Shown: one piece after another, positions 1,076-40,843 of the stretch
How positions within the stretch are numbered: the stretch's first letter is position 1
Layout: each line of letters opens with the position of its first letter
NCBI RefSeq assembly: GCF_048403405.1
Contig: NZ_CP183129.1
DNA length: 64,000 nucleotides
DNA from: Escherichia coli
Lineage (GTDB): Bacteria; Pseudomonadota; Gammaproteobacteria; Enterobacterales; Enterobacteriaceae
Direction: 5' to 3' (one strand)
Notes under the pieces: model-generated
Told to the model about the DNA's origin: nothing
The model's input: the letters and a program-made list of their open reading frames with translations, nothing else
The model's database searches: none
Program-made: the position numbers and the translations under genes

Positions 1076-1969
1076 TTATTGATGATTTATTTCAGCAAGG
1101 TCTTCAACCGTCAGGCTGGTAAATCGCAGAACGTCCTCAAGAGAGACTCCGGCATCCAGCATGGTTTTGGCAATATTTAGGGCGTTGGTACGTATACCTT
1201 TCTGAAACCCCTCCTGCCGCAATCTTTCCGCAATAGTCATTAAACTCTCCTTGTGTTTCGGTGAACGTTCGGCCACACCGTCGATAAAATCGTTAAAACG
1301 TACCGCATCGCCAGTTTGCAGTATGTAATTAAACAGCCCTTTGATTTGTCTGTCATTAGCGTATCCACTACTTAATAAGCAGGCCATTTGCTCTACCAGC
1401 CCCATCAGGTCGCGTTGACGAATATGTTTTTGAATTAACTCCAGCAGTGCCATACGTCGGTGCTGCATGATTTCATCATCAGGCATGACGGTGACATCAA
1501 TCAGCGGAAATGCAGAGGCATAAAGCTGCCTTGCCAGGTTGGGATCGGCGAAACAATCAAGCCAACACAGCGAATAGGGATAGGGGCTTTCAATACCGTG
1601 GTAAAACAACAATGGCACCACCATCGGCAAGGTTTTGTATCCGGCATCCAGGTGATTTTGCATTGCGGCAATGGCGTAGCGCATCATGCGAAATGCGATC
1701 AGTTTGTTTGAGGTGCTTTGATGTTCAATCAGACAATAGATGTATCCTGGCCCTTGTTCCGTTTTCACCGACCACAGCACGTCGGAATAGCTTTCACGCA
1801 GATCGTCATCAATAAAGCTGCTCGACTCCAGCTTGAGGGTTTTCATATCACAGAGCGCGTGAATAGGTGCCGGTAAATGGAACGCAAGAAAATCGCGCGC
1901 CGTCTCCGGTTGGCGTAAAAAGAGTTTGAACAGCGCATCGTGTGGGGTGGAACTCTGCTTTTTGCTCAT
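1076..1969 (-). CDS. rpnA: recombination-promoting nuclease RpnA (YhgA-like, transposase_31 / PD-(D/E)XK family)
   Basis: 297-aa ORF matching remembered E. coli YhgA/RpnA; start codon choice uncertain (K-12 annotation slightly shorter, from memory). Confidence 0.85.
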
Positions 1970-8534: not shown

Positions 8535-10603
<2,069 letters not shown>

Positions 10604-10610
10604 ATAAAAC

Positions 10611-10637
10611 GGGAGGCGAAGGTGCCTCCTGTTTTTA
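10611..10637 (+). terminator. rho-independent terminator downstream of envZ
   Basis: Hairpin ggaggc-gaaggt-gcctcc followed by tgttttt. Confidence 0.6.
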
Positions 10638-10931
10638 GATTGTTTTCAATTGATTGATAATGAAAGGATTCGCTTGCAAAAGCAGGAGCAATTTTCGGGG
10701 TGCTCCGGTAGGTTGACGGCGTTTGGTTTCCCAGCTTTTGACCAGGTCATAACTTACCCCTACGGCGACAGCAAAATCTTGCTGACGTAAACCCGTTGCT
10801 TCACGGATCGCTTTTACATCGATTTCGCTAAAAGTATGGACGTGCTCTGGTTCAGGCGCTTCTTCACCCTTTTCGATGCGTACCATTTCTTCTGCGCTGG
10901 CAAGAAGATCAGCAAATAATTCGTCTTTCAT
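10635..10931 (-). CDS. putative type II antitoxin, XRE-family helix-turn-helix protein (YiaG/HigA-like)
   Basis: 98-aa ORF; HTH region GLRQQDFAVAVGVSYDLVKSWETKRRQP and C-terminal LLLLLQANPFIINQL resemble E. coli YiaG-type XRE regulators; 58 bp downstream of, and co-directional with, the toxin ORF. Confidence 0.6.
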   Translation of the reverse strand: MKDELFADLLASAEEMVRIEKGEEAPEPEHVHTFSEIDVKAIREATGLRQQDFAVAVGVSYDLVKSWETKRRQPTGAPRKLLLLLQANPFIINQLKTI

Positions 10932-10989
10932 CTGTTTTCAATGCCTCCGTTGGCATTTCGGCCATGGTGGAATTTGTGGAGCTTCAACA

Positions 10990-11307
10990 TTAAAGCAGCT
11001 TCTCGGACAATAGTTTCAATGCCTTTCTTTGTTCTTCTGTTAAATCATCCTGTTCATTTTTAGGATAAATCAACGCCAGATAAATTCGGCCATTGCGTGT
11101 TACGTTGTAATAAATTATCCGAATGCCACCCCGTTTCCCCATTCCAGAACGGTTCCAGCGAATTTTTCTAAAACTGCCTGTGCCTGCGATAATGTCACCG
11201 GCAGTGGGATCTTGAATGAGTAGTTCCTGAAAAGCCCGGAACTCATCATCAGGTAACAATAACTGGCGGCGTTTGCTAAATCCTTGTAGTTCAATAAACG
11301 TGAACAT
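10990..11307 (-). CDS. putative type II toxin, RelE/ParE superfamily (HigB/Gp49-like)
   Basis: 105-aa ORF; motif GGIRIIYY...RIYLALIYPKNEQDDLTEEQ typical of RelE/HigB-like mRNA interferase folds; AGGA about 6 nt upstream of ATG; toxin-first order as in higBA. Confidence 0.6.
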   Translation of the reverse strand: MFTFIELQGFSKRRQLLLPDDEFRAFQELLIQDPTAGDIIAGTGSFRKIRWNRSGMGKRGGIRIIYYNVTRNGRIYLALIYPKNEQDDLTEEQRKALKLLSEKLL

Positions 11308-11331
11308 AATGCATCCTGCGGTCTATTGATA

Positions 11332-11353
11332 ATTATAAGTGTACCGTGTACAT
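11332..11353 (-). promoter_or_regulatory. putative promoter -10 (TATAAT) and adjacent imperfect palindrome (candidate operator) of the toxin-antitoxin operon
   Basis: On the minus strand TATAAT lies about 24 nt upstream of the toxin ATG; tgtac-cgt-gtaca inverted repeat directly upstream. Confidence 0.35.
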
Positions 11354-11376
11354 ATTGGTAGCTAATTAGATATAAA

Positions 11377-11408
11377 AAAACCCCTTATCCGTTTGGATAA
11401 GGGGTCAA
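11377..11408 (-). terminator. rho-independent terminator downstream of pck
   Basis: Hairpin ccccttatcc-gtttg-gataagggg flanked by A/T runs on both sides. Confidence 0.7.
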
Positions 11409-11423
11409 TGAGATTTCAGCTGA

Positions 11424-13046
11424 TTACAGCTTCGGACCAGCCGCTACCAGCGCGGCACCCGCAGGGGTGTCGGTGTATTTATCGAAGTTGTCGATAAACA
11501 GTTTCGCCAGGGTTTCAGCTTTTTCCTGCCACTGTTCCGGAGAAGCGTAGGTATTACGCGGATCGAGGATCTTAGTGTCAACACCCGGCAGCTCGGTCGG
11601 AATCGCCAGGTTAAACATCGGCAGAGTGAAGGTTTCTGCGTTATCCAGCGAACCGTTGAGGATGGCGTCGATAATGGCGCGGGTATCTTTAATCGAGATA
11701 CGTTTGCCAGTGCCGTTCCAGCCGGTGTTAACCAGATACGCCTGCGCGCCTGCCGCCTGCATACGTTTCACCAGCACTTCTGCGTACTGAGTCGGGTGCA
11801 GCGACAGGAATGCCGCGCCGAAGCAGGCGGAGAAAGTTGGCGTCGGTTCGGTGATGCCGCGCTCTGTACCAGCCAGTTTGGCGGTGAAGCCAGAGAGGAA
11901 GTGGTACTGGGTTTGATCGGCAGTCAGACGAGAAACCGGCGGCAGCACACCAAAGGCGTCTGCGGTCAGGAAGATAACTTTAGTTGCGTGGCCCGCTTTG
12001 GAAACCGGCTTAACGATGTTTTCGATGTGATAGATCGGATAAGAAACGCGGGTGTTCTCGGTTTTTGAACCATCATCAAAGTCGATAGTGCCATCTTCAC
12101 GCACGGTGACGTTTTCCAGCAGCGCATCACGACGGATAGCGTTGTAGATTTCAGGTTCCGCTTCTTTCGACAGCTTGATAGTTTTTGCGTAGCAGCCGCC
12201 TTCGAAGTTAAATACGCCGTCATCGTCCCAGCCGTGTTCGTCATCGCCAATCAGGCGACGTTTCGGGTCGGTGGAAAGGGTGGTTTTACCGGTGCCGGAA
12301 AGGCCGAAGAACACCGCAACATCGCCTTTCTCACCAACGTTGGCGGAGCAGTGCATAGAAGCGATACCTTTCAGCGGTAGCAGGTAGTTCATCATTGAGA
12401 ACATCCCTTTCTTCATTTCGCCGCCGTACCAGGTGCCGCCAATCAGCTGCATGCGCTCGGTCAGGTTAAACGCCACGAAGTTTTCGGAGTTCAGACCCTG
12501 TTCTTTCCACTGCGGATTAGTGCACTTCGCGCCGTTCATAACGATAAAGTCTGGTTTGAAACCTGCCAGCTCTTCATCGCTCGGGCGAATAAACATGTTT
12601 TTGACAAAATGCGCCTGCCAGGCCACTTCGGTGATGAAACGGACGGAAAGACGAGTATCCGGGTTCGCACCACAGAAAGCGTCGACAACGAACAGACGTT
12701 TGCCGGAAAGCTGTTTGGTCACCAGGCCTTTCAGATGCTGCCAGGTTTCCGGAGAGAGAGGTTTGTTGTCGTTCTTACCTTTGCCTTTGTCTGCCCACCA
12801 GAAAGTATCGCGAGTGGTATCGTCACGGACGATATACTTATCTTTTGGTGAACGACCGGTGAAGATCCCGGTATCGACGGCAACGGCACCCAGATTAGTT
12901 AACACCCCGCGCTCATAACCTGTCAGGCTCGGATCGAGCTCTTCCTGATACAGCAGGTCGTAGCTTGGGTTGTAAACGATATCATGTACGTCACTGATAC
13001 CATAAGCCTCGAGTTCTTGCGGGGTCAAACCATTGTTAACGCGCAT
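11424..13046 (-). CDS. pck: phosphoenolpyruvate carboxykinase (ATP)
   Basis: 540 aa from [17 protein letters not shown] (internal Met of the 563-aa ORF); kinase P-loop GLSGTGKTT; matches E. coli PckA. Confidence 0.95.
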
Positions 13047-33232: not shown

Positions 33233-33246
33233 TTTAACATTAATGC

Positions 33247-33273
33247 CAAAAACCGGGGAAACCCGGTTTTTTT
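33247..33273. terminator. rho-independent terminator downstream of trpS
   Basis: aaaaaccggggaaacccggttttttt. Confidence 0.75.
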
Positions 33274-33392
33274 ATCCTCTTTTTGCAATAATCCGAAAAA
33301 ATGTGAAGCGCCTCGCCGTTTCCACATCTCGCAGTTGCCACTTATCTTCATTTTTATGAAGATATAAATATTCACTTTATTGAAAATTTACT

Positions 33393-34298
33393 ATGCGTCG
33401 AACGTTTATCAAAAAAGAAGGCGTCGTCATCACGACACTGGCCCGTTATTTGTTGGGTGAAAAGTGCGGTAATCGACTGAAAACCATAGATGAGCTGGCA
33501 ACTGAATGCCGTTCATCCGTTGGCCTGACGCAGGCCGCGTTGAAAACGCTGGAATCAAGCGGAGCGATACGGATAGAACGCCGTGGGCGTAATGGCAGTT
33601 ATCTGGTGGAAATGGATAACAAAGCGCTGCTGAGTCATGTGGATATCAACAATGTGGTGTGCGCGATGCCCTTGCCCTATACCCGTTTGTACGAAGGCCT
33701 GGCGAGCGGATTGAAAGCTCAGTTTGATGGTATTCCTTTTTACTATGCGCACATGCGCGGCGCGGATATTCGCGTGGAGTGTTTACTTAACGGCGTGTAT
33801 GACATGGCGGTTGTTTCCCGACTGGCGGCGGAAAGTTATCTCACGCAAAAAGGGTTATGCCTCGCGCTGGAGCTGGGGCCGCATACCTACGTTGGCGAGC
33901 ACCAGTTGATTTGCCGTAAAGGCGAGTCCGCAAACGTGAAGCGCGTGGGGCTGGATAACCGTTCGGCGGATCAGAAAATCATGACCGATGTCTTTTTTGG
34001 CGATAGTGATGTGGAACGTGTCGATCTCTCTTATCACGAGAGTTTACAACGCATTGTTAAAGGCGATGTTGATGCGGTGATCTGGAACGTGGTGGCGGAA
34101 AACGAACTGACCATGCTGGGATTAGAAGCGACGCCGCTCACAGACGATCCGCGATTTTTACAGGCCACCGAAGCCGTAGTTTTGACGCGAGTCGATGATT
34201 ACCCAATGCAACAATTGCTGCGTGCAGTTGTTGATAAACAGGCCCTGCTTGCCCATCAACAACGAGTGGTCAGTGGGGAACAGGAACCCAGTTATTAA
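33393..34298 (+). CDS. yhfZ: putative transcriptional regulator YhfZ
   Basis: 301-aa ORF in conserved position after trpS. Confidence 0.8.
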   Translation: MRRTFIKKEGVVITTLARYLLGEKCGNRLKTIDELATECRSSVGLTQAALKTLESSGAIRIERRGRNGSYLVEMDNKALLSHVDINNVVCAMPLPYTRLYEGLASGLKAQFDGIPFYYAHMRGADIRVECLLNGVYDMAVVSRLAAESYLTQKGLCLALELGPHTYVGEHQLICRKGESANVKRVGLDNRSADQKIMTDVFFGDSDVERVDLSYHESLQRIVKGDVDAVIWNVVAENELTMLGLEATPLTDDPRFLQATEAVVLTRVDDYPMQQLLRAVVDKQALLAHQQRVVSGEQEPSY

Positions 34299-34314
34299 AC
34301 GAAAGGCATCTGAA

Positions 34315-34677
34315 ATGGAAACCAGACTCAACCTGCTTTGCGATGCAGGCGTTATTGATAAGGACATCTGCAAAGGCATGATGCAGGTCGTCAATGTCCT
34401 GGAAACAGAGTGCCATCTACCGGTGCGCAGTGAGCAAGGAACGATGGCGATGACACATATGGCGAGTGCACTGATGCGCAGTCGCCGTGGTGAAGAAATA
34501 GAGCCGCTGGATGACGAATTGCTGGCAGAGCTGGCGCAATCCACTCACTGGCCAGCCATTTTACAATTGCATCAGGTGTTGTTGAAGGAATTCGCGCTGG
34601 AAGTTAACCCGTGTGAAGAAGGCTATTTGCTGGCCAACCTTTATGGATTATGGATGGCTGCTAACGAAGAGGTTTGA
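34315..34677 (+). CDS. yhfY: uncharacterised protein YhfY
   Basis: 120 aa from METRLNLLCDAGV (internal start of the 160-aa ORF). Confidence 0.75.
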   Translation: METRLNLLCDAGVIDKDICKGMMQVVNVLETECHLPVRSEQGTMAMTHMASALMRSRRGEEIEPLDDELLAELAQSTHWPAILQLHQVLLKEFALEVNPCEEGYLLANLYGLWMAANEEV

Positions 34678-34760
34678 AGCTCCCGACAAATCCACGTCGC
34701 ATAATCTAAATATTCAGAAAAATGAATATTTAATTCAAGGAACAGAAACGAGGCAACAAG

Positions 34761-35924
34761 ATGTTTGTAGAAGCATTGAAACGCCAGAACCCGGCGCTAA
34801 TTTCCGCCGCACTAAGCTTGTGGCAAAAGGGCAAGATCGCCCCGGACAGCTGGGTGATCGACGTGGATCAGATACTGGAAAACGGTAAGCGGCTGATTGA
34901 GACGGCGCGGCTTTACGGCATTGAACTGTATCTGATGACTAAGCAGTTTGGTCGTAATCCGTGGCTGGCGGAAAAACTGCTGCCATTAGGCTACAGCGGC
35001 ATTGTGGCGGTGGATTACAAAGAGGCGCGAGTCATGCGCCGCGCCGGTTTGCCGGTGGCGCATCAGGGGCATCTGGTACAAATCCCTTGTCATCAGGTTG
35101 CTGACGCCGTTGCACAGGGCACCGACGTCATCACCGTGTTTACTCTCGACAAAGCGCGGGAAGTTTCTGCGGCAGCGGTGAAGGCCGGACGTGTGCAGTC
35201 TGTGCTGCTCAAAGTTTATAGCGACGATGATTTTCTTTATCCGGGGCAGGAGAGCGGTTTTGTACAGCATTCGCTGCACGAGGTGGTTGCTGATATTAAG
35301 AAACTGCCGGGGCTGCATTTAGCCGGACTAACCCATTTCCCTTGCCTGCTTTGGGATGAGGCTGCCGGGAAAGTTTTGCCGACACCGAATCTTCACACGC
35401 TGGTACAAGCACGGGATCAACTGGCGAAATCTGGTATTGCGATTGAGCAACTGAACGCGCCTTCAGCGACCAGCTGCACTTCGCTGCCATTGCTGGCGGA
35501 ATACGGTGTGACTCATGCCGAACCCGGTCATGCGCTGACGGGCACTATTCCGGCAAACCAGCAGGGCGATCAGCCTGAACGTATCGCGATGCTCTGGTTA
35601 AGTGAAATCTCCCATCATTTTCGTGGCGACAGCTACTGCTACGGCGGCGGTTACTACCGTCGTGGTCACGCGCAACATGCGCTGGTGTTTACGCCAGAAA
35701 ATCAAAAGATTACTGAAACCAATCTCAAAACTGTGGATGACAGCAGTATCGACTACACCCTGCCGCTGGCAGGCGAGTTTCCGGTAAGCAGTGCAGTAGT
35801 GCTCTGTTTTCGCACGCAGATTTTTGTCACCCGTAGCGATGTGGTGCTGGTGTCTGGTATTCATCGTGGCGAACCGGAAATCGTCGGTCGTTATGACAGC
35901 CTCGGCAACCCTCTGGAGGCGTAA
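34761..35924 (+). CDS. yhfX: alanine racemase-fold PLP protein YhfX
   Basis: 387-aa ORF matching E. coli YhfX. Confidence 0.85.
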   Translation: MFVEALKRQNPALISAALSLWQKGKIAPDSWVIDVDQILENGKRLIETARLYGIELYLMTKQFGRNPWLAEKLLPLGYSGIVAVDYKEARVMRRAGLPVAHQGHLVQIPCHQVADAVAQGTDVITVFTLDKAREVSAAAVKAGRVQSVLLKVYSDDDFLYPGQESGFVQHSLHEVVADIKKLPGLHLAGLTHFPCLLWDEAAGKVLPTPNLHTLVQARDQLAKSGIAIEQLNAPSATSCTSLPLLAEYGVTHAEPGHALTGTIPANQQGDQPERIAMLWLSEISHHFRGDSYCYGGGYYRRGHAQHALVFTPENQKITETNLKTVDDSSIDYTLPLAGEFPVSSAVVLCFRTQIFVTRSDVVLVSGIHRGEPEIVGRYDSLGNPLEA

Positions 35925-37151
35925 ATGGCGCGATTTGTGGTGTTAGTGATTGATAGCTTTGGCGTAGGGGCAATGAAAGATGTCACGTTGGTGCGTCCGC
36001 AGGATGCCGGGGCGAATACCTGTGGTCACATCCTGAGCCAGTTGCCGCATTTGCAGCTATCAGCGCTGGAGAAGCTGGGGCTAATCAACGCATTGGGTTA
36101 TGCACCAGGTGATATGCAACCGTCAGATTCCGCAACCTGGGGGGTGGCAGAGCTGCAACATGAAGGTGGCGATACCTTTATGGGGCATCAGGAAATTTTA
36201 GGCACGCGCCCGTTACCGCCGCTGCGGATGCCTTTTCGCGATGTGATTGACCGTGTTGAGCAGGCATTAGTATCCGCCGGTTGGCAGGTGGAGCGCCGTG
36301 GCGATGATCTGCAATTTCTGTGGGTCAATCAGGCGGTTGCGATTGGCGATAATCTCGAGGCGGATTTAGGCCAGGTCTATAACATCACCGTCAATCTCTC
36401 TGTGATCTCTTTTGACGACGCAATCAAAATTGGTCGTATCGTGCGTGAGCAGGTACAGGTCGGTCGGGTCATTACATTTGGCGGCCTGTTAACTGACAGT
36501 CAACGCATTCTCGATGCCGCAGAAAGTAAAGAAGGGCGCTTTATTGGCATTAATGCGCCGCGTTCAGGCGCTTATGACAACGGCTTCCAGGTCGTGCATA
36601 TGGGCTACGGTGTTGATGAAAAAGTGCAGGTGCCGCAAAAACTGTATGAAGCGGGCGTGCCAACCGTGCTGGTGGGTAAGGTGGCGGATATCGTCAGCAA
36701 TCCTTATGGCGTGAGCTGGCAAAACCTGGTGGATAGCCAGCGGATTATGGATATCACCCTCGACGAATTTAACACGCATCCGACGGCGTTTATTTGCACC
36801 AATATCCAGGAAACCGACCTCGCTGGTCACGCGGAAGACGTCGCACGTTATGCCGAACGTTTGCAGGTCGTTGACCGTAACCTTGCCCGGCTTATTGAGG
36901 CGATGCAGCCAGATGATTGCCTGGTCGTGATGGCGGATCACGGTAACGATCCGACCATTGGTCACAGCCACCATACCCGCGAAGTGGTGCCAGTGCTGGT
37001 TTATCAGCAAGGGATGGTCGCTACGCAGCTCGGTGTGCGCACCACGCTTTCTGATGTGGGGGCTACCGTGTGTGAATTTTTCCGTGCGCCACCGCCACAA
37101 AATGGTCGCTCTTTTCTTTCCTCCCTCCGGTTTGCAGGAGACACCCTATGA
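35925..37151 (+). CDS. yhfW: phosphopentomutase-like metalloenzyme YhfW
   Basis: 408-aa ORF, start abuts yhfX stop. Confidence 0.85.
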
Positions 37152-38026
37152 GTATTGATCCGACGGGTTACACCCTCGCCCATGAGCATCTGCATATTGA
37201 TCTCTCCGGCTTTAAAAACAACGTGGACTGCCGCCTTGATCAGTATGCGTTCATTTGCCAGGAGATGAACGACCTGATGGCCCAGGGCGTGCGTAATGTG
37301 ATTGAGATGACCAACCGTTACATGGGGCGAAATGCGCAATTTATGCTCGATGTGATGCACGAAACTGGCATCAACGTGGTGGCCTGTACCGGTTATTACC
37401 AGGATGCGTTTTTCCCGCAACATGTGGCGACCCGCAGCGTACAGGAACTGGCGCAGGAGATGGTCGATGAAATTGATCAGGGTATCGATGGCACGGAACT
37501 GAAAGCCGGGATCATCGCGGAGATCGGCTCCAGCGAAGGGAAGATTACGCCGCTGGAAGAGAAGGTGTTTATTGCCGCCGCGCTGGCACATAACCAGACC
37601 GGACGCCCGATCTCCACGCATACGTCGTTCAGCACGATGGGGCTGGAACAACTGGCTCTGTTGCAAGCCCACGGAGTTGATCTTTCGCGCGTCACCGTTG
37701 GTCACTGCGATCTGAAAGACAACCTCGACAACATTTTGAAGATGATCGATCTCGGCGCGTATGTGCAGTTCGACACCATCGGCAAGAACAGTTACTACCC
37801 GGACGAAAGGCGCATTGCGATGCTCCACGCGCTACGTGACCGTGGTTTGCTGAACCGCGTCATGCTGTCGATGGATATTACGCGCCGCTCCCATTTAAAA
37901 GCCAACGGTGGTTATGGCTATGACTATTTATTGACCACCTTTATTCCGCAATTGCGCCAGTCAGGATTCAGTCAGGCCGATGTGGATGTGATGTTACGTG
38001 AAACTCCCTCTCAATTTTTCCAATAA
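37148..38026 (+). CDS. php: phosphotriesterase homology protein (amidohydrolase superfamily)
   Basis: 292-aa ORF starting [20 protein letters not shown] (metal-binding HxH). Confidence 0.9.
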
Positions 38027-38036
38027 GGACAGACTC

Positions 38037-38390
38037 ATGAAAAAGATTGGTGTTGCAGGCTTACAGCGTGAGCAGATTAAAAAAACCATTGAAGCGACGG
38101 CTCCTGGCTGTTTTGAAGTTTTCATTCACAACGACATGGAAGCGGCAATGAAAGTCAAATCCGAGCAACTGGATTACTACATCGGCGCGTGTAATACCGG
38201 TGCGGGCGCGGCATTGTCGATTGCCATCGCGGTGATTGGCTATAACAAAAGTTGCACCATTGCCAAACCAGGCATTAAAGCGAAAGACGAACATATCGCC
38301 AAAATGATCGCCGAAGGGAAAGTGGCGTTTGGGCTTTCCGTTGAGCACGTCGAACACGCGATTCCGATGCTGATTAACCATCTGAAATAA
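38037..38390 (+). CDS. yhfU: uncharacterised protein YhfU
   Basis: 117 aa from MKKIGVAGLQREQ. Confidence 0.78.
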   Translation: MKKIGVAGLQREQIKKTIEATAPGCFEVFIHNDMEAAMKVKSEQLDYYIGACNTGAGAALSIAIAVIGYNKSCTIAKPGIKAKDEHIAKMIAEGKVAFGLSVEHVEHAIPMLINHLK

Positions 38391-38401
38391 AAGGCACGAC
38401 T

Positions 38402-39706
38402 ATGGATCTGTATATTCAGATTATCGTGGTGGCGTGCCTGACGGGTATGACATCGCTTCTGGCGCATCGCTCGGCGGCTGTTTTTCATGACGGTATCCGC
38501 CCGATCCTGCCACAACTGATTGAAGGCTATATGAACCGTCGCGAGGCGGGGAGTATCGCTTTTGGTCTGAGCATTGGTTTTGTGGCCTCGGTGGGGATCT
38601 CGTTTACCCTGAAAACCGGGCTGCTCAACGCATGGTTACTCTTTCTTCCTACCGATATCCTCGGCGTACTGGCGATAAACAGCCTGATGGCGTTTGGTCT
38701 TGGCGCTATCTGGGGCGTGTTGATCCTTACTTGCCTGTTGCCGGTAAACCAGCTGCTGACCGCGCTACCGGTGGATGTATTAGGTAGCCTGGGGGAATTA
38801 AGCTCACCGGTGGTTTCAGCTTTTGCACTGTTCCCGTTGGTGGCGATTTTCTACCAGTTTGGCTGGAAGCAAAGTCTGATCGCCGCCGTGGTGGTACTGA
38901 TGACCCGTGTGGTGGTAGTGCGCTATTTCCCGCATCTCAATCCGGAATCCATCGAAATCTTTATTGGCATGGTGATGCTGCTGGGGATCGCGATAACTCA
39001 CGACCTGCGTCATCGTGATGAAAATGATATTGATGCCAGCGGGCTTTCGGTGTTTGAAGAACGCACGTCGCGGATTATCAAAAACTTACCGTATATCGCT
39101 ATTGTCGGGGCGCTGATTGCCGCCGTTGCCAGCATGAAGATTTTTGCTGGCAGTGAAGTGTCGATCTTCACACTGGAGAAAGCATATTCCGCAGGCGTAA
39201 CGCCGGAACAATCACAAACGCTGATTAACCAGGCAGCTCTGGCGGAATTTATGCGCGGGCTGGGTTTTGTACCGTTGATTGCCACCACCGCGTTAGCCAC
39301 TGGTGTGTATGCAGTTGCGGGCTTTACCTTTGTTTATGCGGTGGGCTATCTCTCGCCGAATCCGATGGTTGCAGCGGTATTAGGCGCAGTGGTTATTTCG
39401 GCGGAAGTCCTGCTGCTTCGTTCGATCGGCAAATGGCTGGGGCGCTACCCGTCGGTGCGTAATGCGTCGGATAACATCCGTAACGCCATGAATATGCTGA
39501 TGGAAGTGGCGTTGCTGGTCGGTTCGATTTTCGCAGCAATTAAAATGGCGGGTTATACCGGATTTTCTATCGCAGTTGCCATTTACTTCCTCAACGAATC
39601 CCTGGGCCGTCCGGTACAGAAAATGGCGGCACCGGTCGTGGCAGTAATGATCACCGGTATTCTGCTGAATGTTCTTTACTGGCTTGGCCTGTTCGTTCCG
39701 GCTTAA
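38402..39706 (+). CDS. yhfT: inner membrane protein YhfT
   Basis: 434-aa polytopic membrane ORF. Confidence 0.85.
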   Translation: MDLYIQIIVVACLTGMTSLLAHRSAAVFHDGIRPILPQLIEGYMNRREAGSIAFGLSIGFVASVGISFTLKTGLLNAWLLFLPTDILGVLAINSLMAFGLGAIWGVLILTCLLPVNQLLTALPVDVLGSLGELSSPVVSAFALFPLVAIFYQFGWKQSLIAAVVVLMTRVVVVRYFPHLNPESIEIFIGMVMLLGIAITHDLRHRDENDIDASGLSVFEERTSRIIKNLPYIAIVGALIAAVASMKIFAGSEVSIFTLEKAYSAGVTPEQSQTLINQAALAEFMRGLGFVPLIATTALATGVYAVAGFTFVYAVGYLSPNPMVAAVLGAVVISAEVLLLRSIGKWLGRYPSVRNASDNIRNAMNMLMEVALLVGSIFAAIKMAGYTGFSIAVAIYFLNESLGRPVQKMAAPVVAVMITGILLNVLYWLGLFVPA

Positions 39707-39717
39707 GGAAGGCACCT

Positions 39718-40803
39718 ATGAAGACGTTTCCTCTGCAAAGCCTGACGATTATTGAGGCGCAGCAAAAGCAGTTTGCGCTGGTGGACACGATTTGCCGCCA
39801 TTTTCCTGGTAGCGAATTTCTTACCTGCGGTGATTTGGGATTAACGCCGGGACTGAATCAACCGCGCATTACCCAGCGTGTGGAACAGGTGCTGGCTGAT
39901 GCATTTCACGCACAGGCTGCGGCGCTGGTACAGGGCGCGGGTACTGGCGCGATCCGTGCGGCGTTGGCGGCTTTGCTCAAACCGGGGCAGCGTCTTCTGG
40001 TGCATGACGCGCCGGTTTACCCGACGACTCAGGTCATTATTGAGCAGATGGGGCTGACGCTTATCACTGCTGATTTCAATGACCTGTTGGCACTGAAGCA
40101 GGTTGTCGACGAGCAACAACCAGATGCCGCGCTGGTGCAGCATACGCGCCAGCAGCCGCAGGACGGGTACATTCTGGCAGATGTGCTGGCAACGTTGCGC
40201 TCGGCTGGCGTTCCTGCATTAACCGATGACAACTATGCGGTGATGAAGGTAGCGCGAATTGGCTGCGAATGCGGGGCAAATGTCTCGACTTTTTCCTGCT
40301 TCAAGCTGTTTGGGCCGGAGGGTGTTGGCGCGGTGGTAGGCGATGCTGATGTTATTAACCGTATTCGCGCCACGCTCTACTCCGGCGGCAGCCAGATTCA
40401 GGGCGCTCAGGCGTTGGAAGTCTTGCGTGGGCTGGTGTTTGCGCCAGTGATGCACGCGGTGCAGGCGGGGGTATCTGAACGGTTGCTGGCCTTGCTCAAC
40501 GGTGGTGCAGTTCCGGAAGTGAAAAGCGCCGTCATTGCCAATGCACAGTCGAAGGTGTTGATTGTCGAGTTTCATCAGCCGATTGCCGCCAGAGTGCTGG
40601 AAGAGGCGCAAAAGCGCGGTGCCTTGCCTTACCCGGTTGGTGCAGAGTCGAAATATGAAATTCCACCGCTCTTTTATCGACTTTCCGGAACGTTTCGCCA
40701 GGTGAATCCGCAACTCGAACATTATGCGATTCGTATTAACCCAAATCGCAGCGGTGAAGAGACGGTGCTGCGGATTTTGCGTGAGAGTATTGCCAGTATT
40801 TAA
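39718..40803 (+). CDS. yhfS: PLP-dependent enzyme-like protein YhfS
   Basis: 361-aa ORF matching E. coli YhfS. Confidence 0.85.
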   Translation: MKTFPLQSLTIIEAQQKQFALVDTICRHFPGSEFLTCGDLGLTPGLNQPRITQRVEQVLADAFHAQAAALVQGAGTGAIRAALAALLKPGQRLLVHDAPVYPTTQVIIEQMGLTLITADFNDLLALKQVVDEQQPDAALVQHTRQQPQDGYILADVLATLRSAGVPALTDDNYAVMKVARIGCECGANVSTFSCFKLFGPEGVGAVVGDADVINRIRATLYSGGSQIQGAQALEVLRGLVFAPVMHAVQAGVSERLLALLNGGAVPEVKSAVIANAQSKVLIVEFHQPIAARVLEEAQKRGALPYPVGAESKYEIPPLFYRLSGTFRQVNPQLEHYAIRINPNRSGEETVLRILRESIASI

Positions 40804-40843
40804 TCTTGTGCATGATGTTTTCGAAAAGAATGCAGAAATAAAT

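Follow-up and report, generated by a model that had tools for sequence, protein, structure and literature searches.

The 820-bp interval that separates the end of envZ (position 10603) from the end of pckA (position 11424) in this Escherichia coli strain very probably holds a toxin-first, chromosomal type II toxin–antitoxin (TA) operon of the HigBA2 family, which would work by a mechanism like that of its Vibrio cholerae counterpart and would be an old occupant of the site. The two genes lie within a stretch of 64,000 nucleotides (hereafter, the window) and, as an earlier note on this DNA had described, are co-directional on the minus strand: the upstream gene (10990–11307) encodes a 105-aa toxin and the downstream gene (10635–10931) a 98-aa antitoxin. 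The small size, the toxin-first order, and the 58-nt gap between the genes (10932–10989), on which that description relied, are all confirmed from the sequence. The pair is an ordinary HigB2/HigA2-family TA module, which the RefSeq PGAP pipeline already annotates as a "type II toxin-antitoxin system RelE/ParE family toxin" and a "NadS family protein." Experimental work on the envZ–pckA cassette was not found in the searchable literature, either through the RefSeq protein accessions or through envZ/pckA combined with toxin–antitoxin.

The toxin, which contains ...KRGGIRIIYYNVTRNGRIYLALIYPKNEQDDLTEEQ..., is of the HigB-2 type (Pfam PF06296, RelE/ParE superfamily). In a phmmer search of the PDB, residues 3–100 (98 of the 105) matched V. 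cholerae HigB-2 (5JA9/5JA8) with E = 1.3e-23. The match to PF06296 was weak in this single-sequence comparison (i-E = 1e-5, 26.2 bits) and was the sole Pfam-A family reported at E ≤ 10; a match to PHROG 5869 was also obtained (E = 1e-33), and none was returned by the NCBIfam models or by the PADLOC defense-system models. The AF2 model of the toxin (pLDDT 89.1, with a dip in confidence at residues 51–60) has the order of elements beta1, alpha1, alpha2, beta2, beta3, beta4, alpha3 that, together with a flexible basic beta2–beta3 loop, characterizes the RelE-like (BECR) fold, and Foldseek places it closest to HigB2 (TM 0.83–0.87, 43–47% identity), with RelE structures ranking next. Residues R50, R63, Y81, and K83 are invariant across 14 toxin homologs and align to the catalytic residues R51, R64, Y82, and K84 of VcHigB2, on which activity depends according to mutagenesis (PMC5416850). 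The "sliding" strand IIYY corresponds to I64-I65-Y66-Y67. The earlier assignment to a RelE/HigB/Gp49-like toxin thus stands for the RelE/ParE superfamily and not for the Gp49 or classical HigB Pfam families: only PF06296 was found among Pfam-A matches, and separate HigB families, PF05015 and PF09907, are listed elsewhere (PMC11980606). By homology with VcHigB2, the protein is predicted to be a ribosome-dependent mRNA endonuclease of the HigB-2 type, which would enter the ribosomal A site and cut translating mRNA by means of R50, R63, Y81, and K83. Its gene is preceded by an AGGA ribosome-binding site (11314–11317, minus strand), read from the sequence 6 nt upstream of the ATG and kept in relatives as (G/T)CAGG(A/G)A.

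The antitoxin is of the HigA-2/NadS type, as indicated by NCBIfam, Pfam, PDB, and AF2/Foldseek comparisons. Over residues 5–96 of 98 it matches the NCBIfam model NadS (NF041265) with 75.2 bits, above the curated cutoff of 60, and it also matches Pfam HTH_31/HTH_3. Similarity to HigA-2 in the PDB reached E = 2.7e-4 with the single sequence and 3.1e-10 with a profile (residues 3–94). In its AF2 model (pLDDT 86.6), for which the best Foldseek matches are the HigA2 entries 5JAA, 8A0X, and 5J9I, an N-terminal helix (residues 2–20) is joined by a linker to a five-helix C-terminal XRE helix-turn-helix (HTH) domain (residues 39–97). By homology with V. cholerae HigBA2, the helix is presumed to be the toxin-neutralizing segment, which would fold onto the toxin and switch it off, and the antitoxin would dimerize through its C-terminal domain. 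The proposal that this protein is an XRE-type HTH protein resembling YiaG/HigA was well founded, with one refinement: its score against the YiaG equivalog model PRK10072 is 65.6 bits, below the cutoff of 110, so it is a paralog and not YiaG itself. A blastn search detected no paralog of the antitoxin gene in K-12 at that sensitivity. Identity as MqsA was considered and rejected, given that TIGR03830 scored 31.3 bits (E = 1.4e-7), short of its cutoff of 61.8, PF15731 gave E = 0.11, and the protein has no cysteine. The literature searched did not reveal where the name "NadS" comes from. A Shine-Dalgarno-like GGAGG motif lies 12 nt upstream of the antitoxin ATG, in the intercistronic spacer (minus strand), whose length varies from 58 nt here to 52 nt in Citrobacter and about 8 nt in Kluyvera; folding of the 58-nt spacer yielded no significant RNA structure or regulatory hairpin (z = −0.42).

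The predicted promoter of the operon has a consensus −10 hexamer, TATAAT (11332–11337, minus strand), and a poor −35 at 17-nt spacing (TACCAA, 2/6 positions); because of this weak −35, the promoter was missed by an automatic consensus scan. Relatives located elsewhere in their genomes carry TTGAAT or TTGATT as the −35, likewise at 17-nt spacing. Directly upstream of the −10, in the promoter spacer, lies the palindrome T-GTAC-ACG-GTAC-A (11340–11352, core 11341–11351), which bears out the claim of a palindrome-bearing promoter. The 64-kb window has a single GTAC-N3-GTAC motif. Across related loci totaling 183 kb, the motif occurs 49 times, always in a cassette promoter, and 28 of 29 cassettes have it; it is also kept in Klebsiella aerogenes and in Yersinia ruckeri pYR4. 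This position next to the −10 and this specificity to cassette promoters make the palindrome a likely operator, with a spacing unlike that of the V. cholerae operator. The antitoxin or the TA complex would bind this single site between −35 and −10 and so repress the operon. Copies at the pckA–envZ site carry a single operator and are unique in having neither the distal operator nor a canonical −35.

Each end of the cassette is marked by a hairpin, in agreement with the view that the pair sits between two separate terminators. The first, AAAACGGGAGGC-GAAGGT-GCCTCCTGTTTT (10606–10635), is a bidirectional intrinsic terminator that scored on both strands, is also present in K-12, and terminates envZ on the plus strand and the TA operon on the minus strand. 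Its T/A tract overlaps the stop codon of the antitoxin gene (10635–10637). The second, GACCCCTTATCC-AAAC-GGATAAGGGGT followed by T7 (11379–11406, minus strand), is the pckA terminator and is situated between pckA and the cassette promoter. The operon would thus be insulated from pckA and would end at the bidirectional envZ terminator. Where E. albertii, Citrobacter, and Kluyvera carry the cassette, the pckA hairpin is kept; it is missing from K-12 and from cassette-free Citrobacter. In total, the terminator scan returned four terminator-like sites, against 1.3 expected from shuffles. The match of the toxin to a solved structure (E = 1e-23) and the single occurrence of GTAC-N3-GTAC in the window argue that the cassette is not a product of chance. 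An Rfam scan of positions 10400–11600 found no known RNA element (best E of about 0.9, far under the gathering scores).

Alignment to K-12 (NZ_CP014272.1) confirms that the corresponding spacer is short, as the earlier note had stated (under about 100 bp): envZ and pckA are 75 bp apart with no gene inside, and both cassette genes are missing. In the alignment of the whole window, positions 10636–11422 stand in place of 43–44 nt of K-12. As for gene-sized gains relative to K-12, the suggestion that the window has no other accessory gene content is upheld: just one further gain was seen, of 216 nt at 992–1207. The window is without the K-12 frl operon, and no similarity was found between the ORF at 764–1018 and RpnA.

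The closest characterized system is the V. cholerae HigB-2/HigA-2 pair (VCA0468/0469; PDB 5JA8, 5JA9, 5JAA, 5J9I, 8A0X), which is also a toxin-first operon. The two toxins share, along with the 43–47% identity given above, the fold, the four active-site residues, and the IIYY strand. The antitoxins are only about 24–26% identical, with a common N-terminal (D/E)LFA(D/E)L segment and C-terminal XRE HTH domain for dimerization and DNA binding. Both operons have one inverted-repeat operator with TGTAC half-sites between −35 and −10, and the footprinted VcHigA2 operator (PMC11006873) has the same position relative to the −10 as the operator predicted in the window. However, the spacing differs (GTAC-N3-GTAC in the window, TGTACGC-N5-GCGTACA in V. 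cholerae), as do three of the four base-contacting residues (R68/E71/N72/R77 against D62/K65/S66/R71), so DNA recognition cannot be carried over directly from V. cholerae. Moreover, the V. cholerae module is located in the superintegron, whereas the window cassette lies between housekeeping genes and has a 58-nt spacer between its own two genes.

Other systems are more distant. The HigBA2 module of Acinetobacter baumannii plasmid pAB120 belongs to one homologous family with the window cassette; its genes are in reverse order, its toxin is an RNase, and its promoter is repressed by the antitoxin or the complex (PMC5906591). Unlike the window cassette, it is plasmid-borne and stabilizes plasmids. 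E. coli MqsR/MqsA is also toxin-first, the C-terminal HTH of its antitoxin is distantly similar (PDB 3FMY, E = 0.009), and the MqsA operator AACCT-N3-AGGTT, a short palindrome with a 3-nt spacer (PMC4894380), resembles TGTAC-N3-GTACA in geometry. However, the window antitoxin does not have the zinc-binding CxxC N-terminal domain of MqsA, and the two toxins fall in different branches of the RelE superfamily (PF06296 for the window toxin, PF15723 for MqsR). K-12 YiaG (PRK10072) and stand-alone NadS-family proteins have the size and HTH family of the window antitoxin; they are annotated without a partner toxin, as in toxin-null alleles, whereas the window antitoxin is paired with an intact toxin.

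The cassette was found in 1330 of 5426 complete E. coli genomes (24.5%), and about 1,200 sequenced genomes, O104:H4 among them, have it in intact form. In 107 E. coli genomes, which include CFT073, Nissle 1917, ABU 83972, ATCC 25922, E2348/69, and others, the toxin carries a stop codon, at E22 in CFT073, and the operator a 7-bp deletion, while the antitoxin is intact. One operator repeat unit is deleted in this CFT073-type allele, which presumably relieves auto-repression. Toxin-first order was observed in all 27 related species-level loci. The toxin is broken and the antitoxin intact in five of these 27, with antitoxin-only derivatives in Kluyvera sichuanensis, Phytobacter, Photorhabdus bodei, Photobacterium, and Enterobacteriaceae B14; among 22 loci with an intact toxin, none was without an intact antitoxin. 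This asymmetry of decay, in which the antitoxin outlives the toxin, would be expected of a toxin that is truly toxic, and the loss of the cassette probably passes through toxin inactivation first.

Both genes evolve under purifying selection, as estimated from coding-sequence comparisons with Citrobacter and Kluyvera: dN/dS is 0.04–0.06 for the toxin and 0.010–0.016 for the antitoxin, with dN of 0.11–0.14 and 0.04–0.06, respectively. Within the Enterobacterales loci, amino-acid identity is 69–83% for toxins and 83–94% for antitoxins. One reading of this difference, which we regard as possible though unlikely, is that the antitoxin and not the toxin is the selected part in enterobacteria, as a free-standing regulator or as immunity against plasmid HigB2-type toxins, and that the pckA–envZ copies represent a regulatory variant in the course of being domesticated. 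That reading cites the housekeeping-like dN/dS of the antitoxin (about 0.01) and its repeated survival of toxin decay, as in CFT073, Nissle 1917, and E2348/69.

A rival reading, which we consider improbable, holds that the cassette is a domesticated remnant, with a toxin that is non-toxic or unexpressed and an antitoxin that is useful alone, as a transcription factor or as anti-addiction immunity against HigB2-type toxins of plasmids. The higher conservation of the antitoxin, the weak −35, and the recurrence of antitoxin-only derivatives across species and in the 107 E. coli genomes would all fit such a remnant, as would the dN/dS of 0.04–0.09 of antitoxins at toxin-null loci, measured against their nearest intact relatives. 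Homologous toxins are also present on 900 plasmid records (306 from Acinetobacter, 99 from Klebsiella, and 36 from Escherichia), all of them less than 60% identical to the window toxin apart from two mislabeled chromosomal records. However, the toxin ORF of the window is intact, retains all catalytic residues, and has a dN/dS of about 0.05, and its protein is identical in this strain and in the phylogroup B1 strain of serotype O104:H4. In addition, the dN/dS at toxin-null loci spans the time before the toxin was lost and is thus no proof of later constraint.

The earlier note had described the module as inserted between envZ and pckA, a polarity that is probably wrong. In Citrobacter and Kluyvera, the space between pckA and envZ holds a homologous cassette that shares its junctions, its upstream hairpin, and its single operator with that of E. 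coli, at saturated synonymous divergence (pS 0.69–0.82 in the cassette against 0.47–0.60 in flanking genes). Citrobacter itself is polymorphic: among strains whose PckA proteins are identical, some have the cassette and others do not, and a REP-like element unrelated to the K-12 spacer fills the empty Citrobacter site. The shared site and junctions, the saturated divergence, and the polymorphism in Citrobacter together suggest that the cassette is probably ancient, with a probable loss in K-12. Local alignment detected no signal of a cassette remnant in the 44-nt K-12 spacer (428 of 500 shuffles gave an equal or higher score), which points to a replacement and not to a clean indel.

The opposite polarity, in which the envZ–pckA spacer was ancestrally empty and the cassette entered it recently in particular lineages, also seems improbable, even though several observations are in its favor. 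The spacer is short in K-12 and in about 75% of E. coli genomes, and that of Klebsiella is short with a single hairpin. Close relatives of the cassette occupy many genomic contexts among the 27 species-level loci, which indicates that it moves, and between E. coli and E. albertii the cassettes share 98–99% identity and the flanks 92–94%, which points to recent horizontal exchange. Furthermore, a neighbor-joining tree of concatenated toxin and antitoxin proteins did not recover the pckA-site copies as one clade, owing to short internal branches, and so a single ancestral insertion is not established. However, a search of the flanks for direct or inverted repeats that would point to transposition or integration was negative, and neither target-site duplications nor mobility genes were found at the cassette. 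The replacement of unrelated sequence in K-12 and the junction architecture common to three genera with saturated dS also argue against recent insertion, as do the divergence among E. coli cassette alleles (up to about 2.5%, near the roughly 3% of the flanks) and the lack of homology between the empty E. coli and the empty Citrobacter alleles. From these sequence comparisons, the cassette is most likely an old resident of the site that was lost or replaced in K-12-like strains; it was probably an old occupant in the Escherichia, Citrobacter, and Kluyvera lineages and now persists as a presence/absence polymorphism in E. coli.

Least probable is that the operon is mainly an anti-phage abortive-infection module, in which infection would free the HigB2-type RNase and shut down translation: RelE/ParE-superfamily toxins have been discussed as defense toxins (PMC11980606), members of the toxin family are found in phages and prophages (PHROG 5869 and 2104; nine phage records), and the within-species distribution is patchy and recombination-driven, but the toxin matched none of the PADLOC models and the locus is set between two housekeeping genes, outside any defense island. 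The most likely biological role of the operon would be addiction, in the sense of selfish persistence, and it may also protect against related toxins carried by plasmids.

As a routine member of its family, the cassette has mostly little wider consequence, with a modest value as an uncharacterized E. coli TA locus. Since K-12 does not carry it, it is missing from the usual catalog of E. coli TA systems, as well as from the multi-deletion strains constructed on the basis of that catalog. The natural toxin-null, operator-deleted alleles offer a ready series on chromosomal TA loss and on the function of orphan antitoxins. Partial matches in HS-02, considered as possible deletion intermediates, were rejected as an artefact, as the locus there belongs to a low-quality assembly full of homopolymer runs. 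Partial cassette matches were also seen in strain BS-04.

The stop codons of envZ (10603) and pckA (11424) enclose two co-directional minus-strand ORFs: a toxin gene of 105 aa (10990-11307) and, after an intergenic gap of 58 nt, an antitoxin gene of 98 aa (10635-10931). This agrees with the earlier note, whose description was correct in all details checked. The short K-12 spacer that it described is real, since envZ and pckA are 75 bp apart in that genome with no annotated genes between them; when the whole window was aligned to 69 kb of K-12, positions 10636-11422 replaced 43-44 nt. Both flanking terminator hairpins that it described were recovered by a terminator scan (10606-10635, both strands; 11406-11379, minus strand). 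The envZ terminator scores as bidirectional, and its T/A tract is overlapped by the antitoxin stop codon. Folding of the 58-nt spacer revealed no significant RNA structure, and no Rfam family matched the cassette region.

The 105-aa protein matches the sequences of Vibrio cholerae HigB-2 crystal structures (E=1.3e-23, residues 3-100), Pfam PF06296 (i-E=1e-5) and PHROG 5869 (E=1e-33). HigB-2 is the prototype of PF06296, with toxin-first gene order and ribosome-dependent mRNA cleavage (PMC11980606). In an AlphaFold model built with 14 homologues (pLDDT 89.1), the structural elements follow one another as in HigB2, with low confidence in the basic beta2-beta3 loop, and Foldseek ranks HigB2 structures first (TM 0.83-0.87, 43-47% identity), ahead of RelE structures, that of E. 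coli among them. In V. cholerae HigB-2, replacement of Arg51, Arg64, Tyr82, or Lys84 by alanine reduces activity 170- to 3000-fold (Hadzi et al., PMC5416850); the equivalents here, R50, R63, Y81, and K83, are invariant among the 14 homologues. Similarly, the strand 65-IIYY-68, which slides upon antitoxin binding (PMC5416850), aligns with I64-I65-Y66-Y67. The earlier proposal of a RelE/HigB/Gp49-like toxin therefore holds as to a toxin family, which is HigB-2/PF06296 and not Gp49 or classical HigB.

With the NCBIfam NadS model, the 98-aa protein scores 75.2 bits, above the curated cutoff of 60; it remains below the cutoffs of YiaG (65.6 bits, cutoff 110) and MqsA (31 bits, cutoff 61.8). It contains an XRE HTH (residues 39-76) and matches V. 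cholerae HigA-2 over essentially its full length (E=2.7e-4 alone, E=3.1e-10 with a 13-sequence profile), which bears out the likeness to YiaG/HigA noted previously, YiaG being a sub-threshold relative. In the model, a linker connects an N-terminal helix (2-20) to a five-helix HTH domain, and the closest fold matches are HigA2 structures. Judged from the homology and predicted folds of both proteins, the gene pair is a HigBA2-family type II toxin-antitoxin operon.

The promoter region has the anatomy of such an operon. On the minus strand, the pckA stop is followed by a strong hairpin with a T7 tract (11406-11379), the palindrome T-GTAC-ACG-GTAC-A (11352-11340), a TATAAT two bases beyond it (11337-11332), an AGGA (11317-11314), and the toxin ATG (11307). 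The 64-kb window has a single GTAC-N3-GTAC; 183 kb of related loci have 49, all of them in promoters of homologous cassettes, and 28 of 29 loci have it. Most relatives carry two copies approximately 30 bp apart, which bracket a TTGAAT/TTGATT-type -35 located 17 nt from the -10. Cassettes at the pckA-envZ site (E. coli, E. albertii, Citrobacter, and Kluyvera) have the proximal copy only, the distal position being occupied by the pckA terminator, and a poor -35 (TACCAA in E. coli), which is why the automatic promoter scan did not call this promoter. The footprinted operator of V. cholerae HigA-2, TGTACGC-N5-GCGTACA, likewise lies between -35 and -10 (PMC11006873); the TGTAC half-site is common to both, whereas the spacing differs, and among the base-contacting residues R68, E71, N72, and R77 (here D62, K65, S66, and R71) only R71 is kept. 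In geometry, the predicted operator resembles the MqsA palindrome AACCT-N3-AGGTT (PMC4894380).

By analogy with what is described for V. cholerae and Acinetobacter baumannii HigBA2, the toxin would cleave mRNA in the ribosomal A site, the antitoxin N-terminus would fold onto the toxin and neutralize it, and the operon would be auto-repressed at the palindrome. As for a putative physiological role, we prefer selfish persistence, possibly with an anti-addiction benefit; phage defence is possible but unsupported.

Of 5426 complete E. coli genomes, 1330 (24.5%) contain the cassette, in every case on the chromosome and almost always in single copy, with 95-100% identity (90-95% in one record). Its distribution is patchy, with O104:H4 C227-11 among the carriers and K-12 and one O111:H11 strain among the non-carriers. 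The pair belongs to a well-known kind of module but is experimentally uncharacterised; automatic annotation already names its genes "type II toxin-antitoxin system RelE/ParE family toxin" and "nadS: NadS family protein". In the "complete" genome of E. coli HS-02 (related locus L040, 2013-2546), the annotation gives a 177-aa hypothetical protein for this region, which is degraded into homopolymer runs; it was rejected as a biological allele and put down to assembly quality.

A toxin-seeded scan of one genome per species gave 27 close-relative loci, all with the antitoxin directly downstream of the toxin. Flank clustering revealed many different genomic contexts (e.g., yfhL-murR in Klebsiella aerogenes), and 900 plasmid records carry homologues, so over long timescales the cassette does move. 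No accompanying mobility genes or terminal repeats were found. The PLSDB "plasmid" records NZ_OL790696.1, LR134122.1, LR134124.1, and CP125156.1 represent whole or partial chromosomes (4.8-Mb E. coli, 5.4-Mb K. pneumoniae, and K. aerogenes NCTC10006 fragments), so that apparent plasmid matches at at least 80% identity are chromosomal.

The earlier note was supported overall in its interpretation, with two corrections: the toxin family and the age of the cassette. The module it called inserted is indeed absent from K-12, but is probably an old polymorphic resident of pckA-envZ and not a new insert. The same site is occupied in E. albertii, Citrobacter gillenii, C. portucalensis, Kluyvera ascorbata, and K. 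sichuanensis, and all copies have the upstream hairpin CCCCTTATCC-N4-GGATAAGGGG and the single-operator promoter. Between E. coli and Citrobacter/Kluyvera, synonymous sites of the cassette are saturated (pS 0.69-0.82, compared with 0.47-0.60 in pckA and envZ), and both genes are under strong purifying selection (dN/dS 0.04-0.06 for the toxin, 0.010-0.016 for the antitoxin). Among Citrobacter strains whose PckA protein is identical, some have the cassette and others do not. The cassette-free Citrobacter site carries a REP-like element unrelated to the 44-nt segment of K-12, that segment has no detected similarity to the cassette, and the Klebsiella spacer is different again, with a single hairpin. 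Since filled alleles are homologous between genera and empty ones are not, long residence with repeated loss or replacement is the most economical reading of these sequences; it is not proven, given the fast turnover of intergenic DNA and a neighbour-joining tree that leaves the cassettes unresolved. Homologous exchange between E. coli and E. albertii apparently also happens, given a cassette 98-99% identical (dS 0.05-0.11) beside a pckA approximately 93% identical (dS 0.35).

The Citrobacter REP-like element, GCCGGATGGCGG...GCCTTATCCGGCCTAC (L041, L043-L048, 4124-4197), shares the 9-mer CCTTATCCG with the pckA hairpin of cassette-bearing Citrobacter alleles, which may be coincidence; E. coli has only CCTTATCC of it. 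In E. albertii NBRC 107761 (L005, 3700-6315), only the last ~80 codons of envZ, with a frameshift, remain downstream of the cassette, and a 73-nt pckA-like fragment and unrelated ORFs come next; the envZ side of this locus is thus rearranged or an assembly chimera.

In 107 complete genomes, GATGAG has become AAGTAG in the toxin gene, a stop at codon 22 (window equivalent 11241-11246), and one operator repeat, GTACACG, is missing (7 bp, 11345-11351), which destroys the palindrome. Carriers include CFT073 (L039), Nissle 1917, ABU 83972, ATCC 25922, E2348/69, and O25:H1 CU39ES-1 (L035); their toxin gene is a pseudogene according to PGAP, and their antitoxin gene is intact. Likewise, at five species-level loci (Photorhabdus bodei, Enterobacteriaceae B14, Photobacterium, Phytobacter, and K. 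sichuanensis) the antitoxin is intact and the toxin is frameshifted, truncated, or has an internal deletion, and at all 22 loci with an intact toxin the antitoxin is intact too. Since the toxin served as the seed of the scan, ascertainment does not explain this asymmetry; it is to be expected if the toxin is truly toxic, and it suggests a route of loss in which the toxin is inactivated first and the remainder can then be deleted. This null allele in several widely used strains, the unusual conservation of the antitoxin, and the single-operator variant at pckA-envZ are small surprises.

Elsewhere in the window, positions 992-1207 (216 nt) have no K-12 counterpart and form the 3' end of the rpnA/yhgA ORF (1076-1969, minus strand; 297 aa vs. 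292 aa in K-12). The K-12-type 3' end (107 nt) is still present just downstream (~885-991), so the C-terminal segment looks to have been replaced or displaced, leaving a remnant. The fructoselysine operon frlABCD-frlR of K-12 (~5.2 kb, yhfL to yhfS) is missing, and the yhfL-yhfS junction is only 29 nt (40805-40833). The yhfZ-yhfS block (33235-40804) is only 95.5% identical to K-12, whereas the remaining sequence reaches 97-98%, and the trpS-yhfZ interval is longer by ~130 nt in K-12 (window 33235-33249).
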